Origin: Octopus vulgaris
Taxonomy: Eukaryota
DNA length: 64,000 nt
Direction: 5' to 3'
Assembly (NCBI GenBank): GCA_951406725.2
Contig: OX597823.1
Coordinates: 104,098,001 to 104,162,000 of the forward strand
The translations under genes and the position numbers were made by a program. Shown piece after piece: positions 20,343 to 63,246 of the stretch. Under the pieces are notes generated by a model. That model was not told the DNA's origin and did not search any database. It saw only the letters and a program-made list of their open reading frames with translations. The stretch's first letter is position 1. The number at the start of each line of letters is the position of its first letter.

Positions 20343-20444
20343 CACAACGGTAGTTTCAACTTCTGTTGCATCGGTCCTTTGCGGGTGGGATATTATACAA
20401 CTGGCTGTGCTGCATCCTCCGGTGCAGATGTATCTCGTCAGGTG
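20343..20444 (-). ncRNA. Type I hammerhead motif with canonical core and long stem II
   Basis: Minus strand: CAC-CTGACGA-[GAT..TGCACCGG...CCGATGCA..GTT]-GAAA-C TACC G-TT-GTG. Confidence 0.65.
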
Positions 20445-24086: not shown

Positions 24087-24260
24087 CATATATACGACGG
24101 GCTTCTTTCAGTTTCCATCTACCAAATTCACTCAGAAGGTTTTGGTCAGCTCGAGGCTACAGTAGAAGACACTTGCCCAAGGTGCCACGCAGTGGGATTG
24201 AACCCGGAAACTATGTGGTTCGTAAGGAAGCTACTTACCACACAGCCACTCCTACGCCTA
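23835..24260 (-). mobile_element. SINE family B, full-length
   Basis: Reverse complement of 47917-48357, including the (TTTTACTC)n tail. Confidence 0.9.
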
Positions 24261-25055
24261 TAAAAATTTTTATTTCTGATCTGAAATTTTTGAACTGACA
24301 ATATTCCTGCTTAAAATTTGATTTTATATTCATATGTGAATTTCTTTAGAAGAAATCATCTTCAGAAATATATTTTTTCTTTGATTGTTTTATCGTCTTT
24401 CCAAACGTCTTGCATTTTTGTTTTCACTTTTCTTCTTGGATTTGGTTTATGATTGCTTTCTTAAAGTTGACATTCTCTTCTGCTATTTTAATTTACTTTT
24501 CTTATGTTTTAGGTCGGTTATTTTCTTCCTGTATGACTTTTTTTCTCTCTCTCTCTTTCACTTTCACTTTCCTTTATAATAAAACACGTCATAATTCATA
24601 ATTCTGTTTTTCATAGAATTCTCTGCGCCCTGAACCTATTCCTAAAATGACAGTATTTCTACATTTATTATAGCATTTACAGCAGCTCAACGATTTATAC
24701 TTCTTTTTTTATGCCCATTTAGAAAATTGTGCGAAACATTCAATATTGCATAAGTTACTTTATTCCTTTTCTCAAATCTCTTTCTTCTCATTTCTGAGTG
24801 CCTCGGTTATGTTCAGTGTTATGCTTTTTTTCTTCTTGATCTGGGTATCTTCCAATGTATTCAAAGTACATAGCTTGATATGTGCCTGCAGTGCCTAGTT
24901 ATGTTATTTTCCGTATATTGCGTATATATTTATGCCCTGAGTTAATACCAGATTATTTCTTTCAGTTGTGGTACTTCTACTTATATGTGCGTGCGTATGT
25001 ACATGTGTGTGTGTGTGTGCGTGTCTTTTTACGGCGGTGATGCGGTGATATATAT

Positions 25056-28164: not shown

Positions 28165-29431
28165 CAAGGTGGTATCAAAATGTTCCTGAACTAGTTCTGT
28201 AGCACGCCAATAGATGGTAGCACGTGGTTGCGTGTGCAGTGATAACTAGCAGTGACCTTCATGAGGCAGTGTGCCGAGTTACATTGCAGTGTTTACTTTG
28301 TAAGTTGTGAATTTTGTGCTTTTGTGATCGCTTGTATGCTATAGTTTGTGATTGTGTCATGGACAACAACAAAGAACCAACGTGAAATTTTGCGTTAAAC
28401 TTGAGAAGTCTGCTACAGAGACATGAATATGCTTCGGCAAGCTTATGGCGACTATGCAATGGGGTACACGCAATGTTTCAGGTGGCATGGGTCAGCAAAT
28501 GTGGAAGTACGTTTCTTGAAGACAATGAACGATCTGGAAAACCTGTCACGTGCATCAGGCACAGGAATGTGGAGTAAATTCATCAGCTTGTGCATGAGGA
28601 TGGTCGAAGGACAATCAACGACATTGCTGATGTTGTTGGTCTGTCGTATGGGTCCGTGCAGGCAATCCTAACGTCTAAATTGAACATACGGCGTGTCTCT
28701 ACCAAGTTTGTGCCCTGCCTGCTAACCACTGAGCAGAAAAAAACATTGTATCGAAGTATGTCAAGATCTCGGTCAGCATGCCGCTGATGACTCATCTTTC
28801 ATGTCGAGGATCATCACCGGTGACGAGAGATGGAGCTATTGGTACGGCCCTGAGACAAAGCAACAGTCAGTACAATGGAAGAGCCCTTCATCTCCACGAC
28901 CAAAGAAGGCACGGCAGAGCTGCAGCTTAATCAAGAGTATGCTCATCATTTCCTTTTTTTCTACATCTGCGATATTGTACGTCGGGAATTCGTCCCTCAG
29001 AGCTAGGATATCAATTAAGAGTTCTACTTCGATGTTTTGAAGCATTTGAGGACATTCGGCGAAACGACCGGATCTGTGGAGCTCGAAAACCACAATGCAC
29101 GGGGACAATGCACGCTGTCCCACTCGTGGGTTTCTCCCCTAAAGCAACATAGTATCGCTTCCGCACCCACCCTATTCGCTAGATTTAGCACTTGCGGATT
29201 GCTGGCCTCTTCCCCACGATGAAAAGAAGCTCAAAAATCGCCGTTTTATCACCATTGTCGATATGAAGAGAGCGAATCGCAGAAATTCCTCGACTCGCTT
29301 ACGGAAAACGACCTCCAGGCCGGATTCCCAGAACGCTGGGACCGGTGTATTGCTGCGCAAGTTGATTATTTCGAAGGAGATGATGTTAAAACTTAGGTAA
29401 ATAAGTAATTTTTATATTAAACATAACTAGT
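28165..29431 (+). pseudogene. Mariner (DD34D) transposon with decayed transposase
   Basis: TA|CAAGGTGGTATCAAAATGTTCCTGAACTAGTT left TIR. Frameshifted motifs: NVKFCVKL, MLRQAYGD..CFRW, RRVSTKFVPCLLT, IITGDERW, PETKQQSVQW and HPPYSLDLA. The right TIR is truncated at AACTAGT by a SINE. Confidence 0.9.
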
Positions 29432-59089: not shown

Positions 59090-59752
59090 AATCAACATCA
59101 TCGCCAGCAGCAGCAACAACAACGGTTGCAATTATAACAAAAATATCATCAATCTCGGCCATATTTGATTTTTGTTGTACACATTTGTTTATTTCCAGCT
59201 ATTTTTGTGAAATTATTTTCTTTTTGTTTCGTGCTATATTTCTTTATCATCATCATCATCATCATCATCATCATTATTGTTTGGTGGTGGTGGTGGTGGT
59301 GGTGGTGGTGGTGGTATTATCATTATCATTTTGTTATTACCTCACTGTAATTCTTTTTTCATTCTTCGTTGTTTTTTCCTTGCCAGTCCTACCATTTCTT
59401 AAAACACTTCCTGCTATCTCTATCTAAGCCATTATTCTCAACGAACCTTCTGCATTTTCTGAAGAAGCTTTTTCGTAACCAATAATTGCTCAGTGGAGCC
59501 ATACTGCTGCCTACTGAATAACTTAGTTAATTATAGCAATGTGCTTCAACCAGTTTTTAAAGAACAATAAATAATGATAATAATTTTTATTCCAGCATCC
59601 GTGAATGTCGTAATCGTTTACAGATCACAATGTCTGGTCGTCGTTGCAGCACACAGTAAAGTTGGTGGAGAAGGTGGTGTGAAGTGGAGAAAATGAATGA
59701 GAACAAGAGGGCGGTGAATGTAAAAATGATATCCATGTATGTATAGTTATAG

Positions 59753-59805
<53 letters not shown>

Positions 59806-59864
59806 TATATAGATAGTTAGATAGTTAGTTAGTTAGTTAGTTAGTTAGATAAACATACATATGC

Positions 59865-59917
<53 letters not shown>

Positions 59918-59922
<5 letters not shown>

Positions 59923-60331
59923 ATTTAAAGGGCTAAAAACACTATGTGGTCAGCCATATGCCAGAAGTAGATCACCTACGATCAAACTACAAAGAAAAGA
60001 ATGTTCTCTAGAGAAAAATTCAGATATAGGAATTTTGATACGGAAAACTGGTGGTTAATTTTACAAATTATATTACTTGTGAAACGATCGCACTGAGGAG
60101 CCCTACGGACGAGGGATTACGTAAGTGATTCATTCGTTGATAGGCGAAACCGCCGGTCTGCGTTTAATTCTTGTTTTTTATATAATTTTCATCTGTCTTG
60201 CCCGCATATTGTTCTGGTTACCGCTGAATTTTTCTATAGAGAACATTCTTTTCTTTGTAGTTTGATCGTATGTGATCTACGTCTAGCATATGGCTGACCA
60301 CATAGTGGTTTTTCAGCTCTTTAAATATACA
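59918..60331. repeat. Fold-back inverted repeat (~105-bp arms) enclosing a hammerhead
   Basis: 59918-60023 (..CACTATGTGGTCAGCCATATGC..TACGATCAAACTACAAAGAAAAGAATGTTCTCTAGAGAAAAATTCAG) is the reverse complement of 60224-60331. Confidence 0.95.
60089..60162 (+). ncRNA. Canonical type I hammerhead ribozyme
   Basis: CGCA-CTGAGGA-GCC..ACGA..ATTAC gtaa GTGAT..TCGT..GGC-GAAA-CC gcc GG-TC^-TGCG. All core nucleotides are intact, with a GUC triplet and predicted cleavage after 60158. Confidence 0.9.
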
Positions 60332-60437
60332 CATGTATTAGAATTTTCTCTGATTTTTCAGATTTTTGTATGCTAGGCTACTGGTTTTAAATTGATATTA
60401 ATTAAATTAATATTCAATTTATCTCCCTCTTTACTTT

Positions 60438-61296
<859 letters not shown>

Positions 61297-61479
61297 AAGT
61301 TGATGAATACCACCTCTTGATCCCCTCCATTTTCTTATTGCCGTATAAATTAAGGGTAAAACAACTTCTTACCCTCACCCATTTATTACATTCAGTAGTG
61401 TAATCGCCAGGCAATGAAAAACACTTGTGTATTAATAATTGGGTATTCTACCAGCAGTATATTGGATAGATATTATCCC

Positions 61480-62623
61480 TTAGTTGCTAGCTAAACCATG
61501 CAGAGTGAAATCGCTTGAGCTCTACTGTACATGCGCACTAAGTTTTAACGTTCTTGCTCACTTCCGTTGTTTACTGCAGTGCTTGGAAGGAACGTGTGTA
61601 GCGTATGGTCGTCGCATTGAACATGACAGAGAAAGTTGAGCAGAGAATCTGCGTCAAATTTTTCTAAAAGCTTGGCGATACCTGCTCAGAGGCTTACGCA
61701 AAGTTTCATAAAATGTATGGAAAGGAGTGTATGAGCTGCACACAAGTGTATGAGTGGTTCAGACGTTTCCAAGGTGGCCCAAAAATGTCGATGGTGACGA
61801 ACGTTCTGGGAGACCTGCAACCAGCAGAACTGAATAAAACGTCGCAGATGTGTACACAGCTGTGAGAGGAAATCGTCGAATCACCATCCGTGAGTTATCA
61901 GAGGATGTGAAGATTAGTTACGGTTCAGTTCAGTCCGTTATCAATGAAGATTTGGGTATGAGACGCGTGTCTGCCAAGTTTGTGCCAAAACTGCTTTCTG
62001 CTGCCCAAAAAGACACTCGGGTTTCAGTTGCACAAGATCTCCTTGATTTTGTCGAGAGCGATGAAAAGTTTTTGAAAACGGTCATAACGGATGACGAATC
62101 GTAGGTCTATGGCTATGACCCCGAAACAAAGCCTGTCTTTGCAGTGGAAGACTTCAACCTCTCTGAGACGGAAGAAAGCACTTATGAATCGAAGCAATGT
62201 GAAGACACTGTTGAATGTTTTCTTCGACTACAAGGGAATTGTTCATCATGAGTATGCTTCACCTGGTCAGACAGTAAACAAGGCGTACTACTGCGACATT
62301 TTGCGGCGTTTAAGGGAAGCCATTTGTCGGAAAAGGCCACAGTTGCATGCATCTGGTGAGTAACAATTGCACCATGACAACGCGCCTGCCCATTCTGCGC
62401 AGCTCGTGCAGCAATTTTTGGCTAGGGACAGCATTCCCCTAGTCCGACAGCCACCGCATTCCCCAGATCACGCCCCTTGCGACTTTTTCCGCCTTCCAAA
62501 AATCAAATCCCGCTTGAAAGTAAGAATGCAACGAGACAGCTGCTGAAACGAGTTCCAGGAATGCTTCCCTCAGTCGAAACAGCTCTGGATTAAGTGTGCG
62601 ACTTCCGAAAGGGACTATTTTGG
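61480..62623 (+). pseudogene. Mariner (DD34D) transposase pseudogene
   Basis: ATG at 61623 starts MTEKVEQRICVKF. Further motifs: VYEWFRRF, RRITIRELSEDV, RRVSAKFVPKLL, VITDDES*VYGYDPETK, FFDYKGIVHHEY, HHDNAPAH and PPHSPDHAPCDFF. Stops and frameshifts are present. Confidence 0.92.
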
Positions 62624-62698
62624 ACATCCATCCATCCATCTTTATGTATGTACATACATACATTCATTCATACATACATACATACATACATACATACA

Positions 62699-62732
<34 letters not shown>

Positions 62733-62742
62733 CATACATACA

Positions 62743-62974
62743 TATTTCTTTACTGCCCACAAGGGGCTACACACAGAGGGGACAAACAAGGACAGACAAA
62801 CGGATTAAGTCGATTATATCGACCCCAGTGCGCAAGTGGTACTTAATTTATCGACCCCGAAAGGATGAAAGGCAAAATTGACCTCGGTGGAATTTGAACT
62901 CAGAACGTAACGGCAGACGAAATACGGCTACGCATTTCGCCCGGCGTGCTAACCATGCTGCCAGCTAGCATGCA

Positions 62975-63008
<34 letters not shown>

Positions 63009-63246
63009 CATACATACATATTTCTTTACTGCCCACAAGGGGCTACACACAGAGGGGACAAACAAGGACAGACAAACGGATTAAGTCGATTATATCGACC
63101 CCAGTGCGCAAGTGGTACTTAATTTATCGACCCCGAAAGGATGAAAGGCAAAATTGACCTCGGTGGAATTTGAACTCAGAACGTAACGGCAGACGAAATA
63201 CGGCTACGCATTTCGCCCGGCGTGCTAACCATGCTGCCAGCTAGCA
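62743..63246 (-). mobile_element. Tandem pair of apparently identical SINE A copies (276-bp period)
   Basis: 62743-62970 and 63019-63246 share private variants (GCGCAAGTGG, AAATTGACCTCGGTGG, AACCATGCTGCCAGCTAGCATG) and are separated by (ACAT)n. Confidence 0.9.

Follow-up and report, generated by a model that had tools for sequence, protein, structure and literature searches.

A truncated copy of a non-coding hammerhead repeat with insertion marks of Penelope-like elements in the genome of Octopus vulgaris

A window of 64,000 nucleotides from Octopus vulgaris (contig OX597823.1; by window is meant the whole stretch of DNA analysed) contains a complete type I hammerhead motif (60089-60162, + strand), located between the two arms of an inverted repeat. 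Is the hairpin a functional device, as a sequence-only reading of the window had proposed, or the trace of a mobile element? With high probability, the element is a truncated copy of a non-coding tandem repeat, likely a non-autonomous Penelope-like element (PLE) of the non-LTR retrozyme type, and the inverted arm likely arose in the course of insertion. Taken alone, the locus is probably ordinary debris of a retroelement.

Features of the locus are listed in Table 1. The inverted repeat of about 105 bp is confirmed, as the arms are identical in 101 of 108 alignment columns, with 5 mismatches and 2 gaps. A + strand transcript would form the long hairpin foreseen by the sequence-only reading (-199 kcal/mol, z = -18.8). 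The insertion has been diagrammed on one natural unit, used as a ruler for all unit coordinates. It includes, from left to right, an inverted segment (443-550), a 9-nt filler, and two forward segments (254-550 and 1-105), and the element extends beyond the right arm, up to 60436. The second, unrelated hammerhead family inserted next to it has 1516 first-look candidates in the genome; core and palindromic stem III are kept in 21 of 30 fetched copies.

Table 1. Features of the window element and its surroundings, and the tandem array of the same family
Feature	Position	Strand	Remarks
(TA)n-rich microsatellite	59735..59917	.	left edge; likely insertion target
Left arm	59918..60023	-	inverted 5'-truncated copy of unit 3' end, positions 443-550, without tail
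Filler	60024..60032	.	9 nt at inversion junction, unlike either piece
Forward copy	60033..60331	+	5'-truncated copy of 550-nt unit, positions 254-550
Stem I	60089-92/60159-62	+	4 bp
Core CUGAGGA	60093-99	+	
Stem II	60100-60145	+	long, GUAA cap
GAAA	60146-49	+	
Stem III	60149-60157	+	palindrome: 4 bp, 1-nt centre, 4 bp
GUC site	ends at C60158	+	predicted cleavage after C60158, unit position 378/379
Right arm	60224..60331	+	unit's own 3' end, first fixed terminus at position 550
Tail	60332..60436	+	~105 nt, start of next tandem unit, to second fixed terminus
Short palindrome	60388-60421		within tail
Second hammerhead family	60433..61500	+	abutting, unrelated insertion
Inverted piece of second family	60433-60596 vs 61139-61300		
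Hammerhead of second family	61020-61135		between inverted pieces
Tandem array	G000:C2:212107971-212119230 (L061, L062)		about 20 units, inverted head, (TA)n flanks

All the conserved core parts (CUGANGA, GAAA, UH site) are present in order in the window hammerhead, and the 4-bp stem I and the GUAA-capped stem II were found where they had been placed. Four cores in the window fit a loose descriptor, which on average finds 0.21 in a shuffled sequence (100 shuffles). The convincing ones are the 60089-60162 copy and that of the second family at 61020-61135. Two weaker hammerhead-like matches on the - strand (20346-20441 and 24253-24365) feature a stem III of 2 bp only, and may be due to chance. 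No Rfam hammerhead model matches the window copy at the gathering and E-value thresholds, likely on account of the long stem II.

The fold of minimum energy predicted for the window copy is not a hammerhead, either alone or within the hairpin. Adopting the hammerhead fold costs the copy alone 5 kcal/mol relative to the minimum, and within the hairpin about 10 kcal/mol relative to the ensemble, in models which leave out the hammerhead core contacts and therefore rank copies, but do not decide activity. Stem III is weak as a hairpin (+0.4 kcal/mol) and strong as a duplex between two copies (-10.2 kcal/mol), and as a monomer can close 3 bp. A lone copy should cleave weakly, because the palindromic stem III favours the dimer, and the window copy, having no partner in cis, is predicted to cleave little. 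The designation of this motif as the best candidate for an active ribozyme is hence doubtful: stem III is of the dimer type, one hammerhead only is present, and better candidates reside in the tandem array. The copy ranks mid-family for hammerhead folding (20 of 47 scorable copies); the notion that it is unusually misfolded by a private G at position 7 (1 of 77 copies) was rejected on this rank. Variants at 60082, 60097 and 60139 are specific to this locus and distinguish it from other copies. A 4-bp decoy hairpin burying the GAAA core (60143-60154) can form in 32 of the 47 scorable copies, with a median probability of 0.54, and is possibly a built-in off state of the monomer.

As judged by sequence matches, the window element is one truncated copy of a 550-nt non-coding tandem repeat, bearing a hammerhead and found hundreds of times in the genome. 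The loop, described as single-copy by the sequence-only reading, is single within the hairpin, but is a repeat at the genome level: a first look at the 2.8-Gb genome gave 785 candidates for its sequence, the other full-length places among the 40 scored are 89-96% identical, and an exact 18-mer of the hammerhead occurs 58 times. An exact 20-mer near the 3' end of the unit occurs 177 times, which gives this subfamily at least 177 motif matches. A sister subfamily accounts for 151 and 332 exact matches to two motifs. The sister unit (547 nt) is about 75% identical to the window unit and colinear with it over 547 nt; its copies are younger (93-98% identical to the query, 79% at one partial place). 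Units measure 547-551 nt, have a GC content of 33-36%, and are non-coding, the longest stop-free stretch being 68 aa.

A tandem array of about 11 kb (period about 550 nt) contains 20 forward hammerheads, plus an inverted head with one more; all core residues are present in 19 of the 21. Sister units are found in a run of at least three in tandem on another contig. In the array, a four-unit block has a nearly identical second copy 2.19 kb away, a sign of later local duplication, and one unit is 99.8% identical to the ruler. When the two subfamilies are compared, conservation is highest in the tail region (about 90% or more), and the hammerhead (67-75%) ranks among the least conserved parts. This contrast hints at the tail as the site of protein recognition.

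Of 77 aligned copies, 58 retain the full set of core residues. Among 30 copies not chosen by core pattern, the set is complete in 20, and departure from the commonest letter is 0.030 in core columns versus 0.063 elsewhere. The third pair of stem I, in 56 dispersed copies, is GC in 37, AU in 10, GU in 6, and unpaired in 3. Pairing is observed in 94% of cells, versus 31-41% in slid controls (54 of 77 copies). Doubly changed cells are 11, a number reached by 0 of 500 shuffles, but all are at one base pair, in copies which are related and not independent. In the sister subfamily stem I, stem II and the triplet are changed with pairing kept, and the core and the palindromic stem III are retained; the GUAA cap is retained in both subfamilies. 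These patterns are best explained if the hammerhead is maintained by selection in source copies. Of 11 tandem pairs examined 6 could be scored, and in all 6 the double hammerhead is predicted to be 7-10 kcal/mol cheaper than two monomers.

Hammerhead variants of PLEs (Cervera and de la Pena 2014, PMC4209133) are reported to feature the same short helix I (4-5 bp), long helix II and palindromic helix III. In that work a palindromic helix III denotes the dimer type, and in vitro activity of such motifs is low. The octopus unit differs in having a helix II of about 18 bp with internal loops and a stem III able to close 3 bp as a monomer, and is known here from sequence.

Marks of cleavage in vivo were sought in the 5' breakpoints of the copies. 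These show no peak at the site (12 of 117, versus 10.6 expected, p = 0.37), so there is no clear fossil of cleavage. The rate of stops falls upstream of the site (20/111 vs 3/91, p = 0.001, the comparison window being chosen post hoc), but at the site is not significantly above that found downstream (20/111 vs 16/144, p = 0.15). Stalling at a structure would give the same pattern. Of 111 pieces, 91 extend beyond the cleavage site, which means that the majority of templates had been left uncut there, or had been religated.

Insertions were analyzed in a sample including the first 100 listed places for each 3' motif (of 332 and of 177), merged by locus and with the array left out, which gave 79 + 79 loci. 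An inverted piece abuts the 5' end at 72 of the 158 loci, and is missing at 86. Arm lengths and inner breakpoints differ among inverted copies, and breaks are spread along the unit. A whole hammerhead is missing in 41 of the 72 inverted copies; 23 have it only in the loop, 7 in both parts, and a single one only in the arm. Forward 3' ends correspond to position ~550 at 59 loci, to positions ~105-125 of the next unit at 83, and fall elsewhere at 16. There are two fixed 3' termini, about 109 nt apart, and 56 of the 57 scorable inverted insertions use one terminus of each kind (Fisher p = 3e-13); insertions were scorable when both outer ends were at a fixed terminus, and 15 with a non-canonical end were not counted. 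The tail is accordingly one-sided, each of these insertions having one tailed and one tail-less end. Two samples picked by hammerhead, which overlap partly with the 158 loci, gave 19 reciprocal insertions out of 19 (27 of 60 inverted) and 14 out of 14 (21 of 58 inverted).

In 60 sister copies, a microsatellite is found no more than 40 nt from the left edge in 54 and from the right edge in 56, versus a background of 23%; target-site duplications, longer than 4 bp in retrozymes when present, are unreadable where the flanks are microsatellites. A tail (often at one end only), 5' truncation, partial tandems and an inverted head are the insertion signature of PLEs, and, to judge from the copies, all four are found in this family. 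Endonuclease-positive PLEs are described as sharing these traits and the (TA)n targets, the inverted head being likewise 5'-truncated (PMC8557442, PMC3846280). They differ in having an ORF for reverse transcriptase (RT) and GIY-YIG endonuclease, and a tail of 30-40 nt; the distance of about 109 nt between termini, and the tail length of 105-125 nt, are outside this range.

Coding elements able to move the repeat were searched for by the GIY-YIG domain. Among 150 scored of 6136 candidates 148 matches were obtained, many in intact 781-aa frames also matching RVT_1. A cysteine cluster precedes the endonuclease in the translated frame, as described for Neptune-type elements (PMC8557442). One abundant young PLE family (L141-L144) has intact RT + GIY-YIG frames of 771-781 aa, and a hammerhead with a U3-A8 core variant near the 3' end. 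The resident autonomous PLEs have similar A/T-rich termini beside (TA)n and a tail of about 35 nt, and carry a different hammerhead. A GIY-YIG frame at L148:4108-5109 has no RT match and a weak, below-cut-off match to Parvo_NS1 (E = 0.004), which is not the typical PLE arrangement.

The repeat unit could be only the pseudo-LTR, or 3' end, of an autonomous PLE, and its copies ordinary 5'-truncated stubs. Autonomous PLEs typically leave stubs with inverted heads (PMC8557442; L145), and the 150 GIY-YIG candidates scored are a small part of the total. Yet copies longer than one unit enter the previous unit, not an ORF, and about 20 units follow one another in the array with no ORF. No RT or GIY-YIG ORF was found in the unit, or joined to it, in 294 fetched stretches (157 + 137, some overlapping); PLE coding remnants are near only two of these, and both are separated from the unit by a microsatellite. 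A unit match near a GIY-YIG fragment at L147 was discarded as a partner, being a separate sister-subfamily insertion 2.9 kb away; L159 and L325 are likewise separate insertions. The pseudo-LTR explanation is improbable. Two observations count against the main reading: the tail is far longer than in the PLEs described and in the resident autonomous family, and no autonomous partner sharing the unit's sequence was found, as the unit profile matched no PLE-linked terminal repeat in 46 GIY-YIG loci, a small sample of the 6136 candidates.

A non-autonomous repeat, served by PLE proteins, may give rise to hairpins as follows. Multimeric transcripts would fold into double hammerheads via the palindromic stem III, and would be cut to unit length, and perhaps circularised. 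A PLE reverse transcriptase/GIY-YIG protein, supplied in trans, would cut (TA)n DNA, and each target strand would prime a cDNA, the two strands using different start sites. Head-to-head joining of these partial cDNAs would generate a hairpin. An arm of less than about 170 nt, combined with a forward piece long enough to contain the motif, would leave the hammerhead in the loop.

In vitro, the protein of the Anolis Poseidon element, a PLE, is reported to begin synthesis at two internal RNA sites which delimit the tail, and to cut both target strands and extend both (Frangieh et al. 2024, PMC11167929). Synthesis in that system relies mainly on uncut RNA as template, as the many pieces running past the cleavage site suggest for the octopus unit. 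Poseidon is autonomous and its start sites are close together, whereas the octopus unit is non-coding, with the sites about 109 nt apart. The reciprocal ends and the two fixed termini fit the two-site priming of PLEs. Another origin proposed for head-to-head repeats, self-priming with an antisense template (Arkhipova et al. 2013, PMC3846280), is compatible with the reciprocal rule as well, but two-site priming accounts for the rule more simply. That PLE enzymes mobilise a true retrozyme family in trans, and that, almost as a strict rule, each inverted insertion uses both RT start sites once, one per strand, is a tentative proposal, with the chances leaning somewhat against it.

The hairpin could alternatively be functional, nicking its own loop to produce a defined dsRNA, or cutting host pre-mRNA. 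The intact core of the window hammerhead and the high stability of the hairpin are in keeping with this, as is a 144-nt contig identical to 60050-60193 (depth 3) found in a run guessed to be RNA; the nearest other copy compared differs from it at 6 places. The contig crosses the cleavage site by 35 nt, hence is either uncut RNA or DNA, and is a weak hint of expression. The four runs guessed to be RNA consist of contigs, from which ends, strand and level are not readable. Among the contig pieces listed (218 more are beyond the list), none spans the inversion junction. A>G differences, considered as a sign of editing, are accounted for by other genomic copies. The lack of a whole hammerhead in the majority of sibling hairpins, and the diversity of their inner breakpoints, speak against a hairpin designed to release dsRNA; the dimer-type stem III and the cost of the hammerhead fold inside the hairpin weigh in the same direction. 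No host exon was found at cut-off by a Pfam scan of 178 open stretches (>= 55 aa) of the window, a result still compatible with small exons or a long intron. A functional hairpin is on the whole very improbable, more so than the pseudo-LTR origin of the unit.

The only matches at cut-off in the Pfam scan are transposase remnants. A decayed mariner-type transposase at 61630-62600 has HTH_48 and Transposase_1 above cut-off, and a weaker HTH remnant lies near 28580-28780. At 62693-63244 a SINE-like repeat with a microsatellite is tandemly duplicated (276 bp, 100% identical), which is either a very recent event or an assembly artefact.

A MITE, or foldback DNA transposon, having terminal inverted repeats which enclose the hammerhead by chance, would account for a short non-coding element edged by arms of ~105 bp, but is refuted by the variable arms and inner breakpoints, all different, by the 86 loci with no abutting inversion, by the lack of fixed terminal inverted repeats across copies, and by the head-to-tail multimers and 5' truncation, which point to reverse transcription.

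The retroelement reading places the octopus family next to the metazoan non-LTR retrozymes (PMC7229834; bioRxiv 10.64898/2026.07.22.740005), described as low-GC tandem arrays of non-coding units, every unit carrying a type I hammerhead. Similarly, these occur as dispersed monomers and multimers, and coexist with autonomous PLEs (PMC7229834). Hammerheads in consecutive tandem units and a short, non-coding sequence with GC under 45-50%, by which retrozymes are recognized, are all found in the octopus repeat. The unit of 550 nt compares with 150-450 nt (PMC7229834) and 51-972 nt (bioRxiv 10.64898/2026.07.22.740005) in the retrozymes described. Stem II is very long in the octopus unit, and no sequence link to the terminal repeat of resident PLEs was found in the 46 GIY-YIG loci. 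Circles have been reported for retrozymes (PMC7229834), and cleavage was seen in 1 of 9 dimers (Li et al. 2026, bioRxiv 10.64898/2026.07.22.740005). The kind of element is already known (non-LTR retrozyme, or non-autonomous PLE), and the family itself is apparently new. A repeat annotation for one octopus genome reports recently active Penelope families, and the word 'ribozyme' is absent from its main text (PMC13282606). No account of the hammerhead family, or of a counted reciprocal-end rule, was found in the literature searched; subscription papers, repeat libraries and supplements may contain both.

The mobilisation of animal retrozymes by PLEs is stated as an open question in the literature consulted, the 2026 preprint dealing mainly with vertebrates. 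In octopus, marks of PLE insertion are borne by a purely non-coding tandem unit, at well over a hundred of the loci sampled. For tests of dimer cleavage and circle formation, better substrates than the window copy are offered by the tandem array and by the young sister subfamily. Models for the formation of PLE inversions gain from the reciprocal-end rule a prediction that can be counted. If mobilisation in trans is true, the inverted insertions would allow twin priming by a PLE dimer, from start sites 109 nt apart, to be read from the genome, and would provide direct invertebrate evidence on who moves animal retrozymes.
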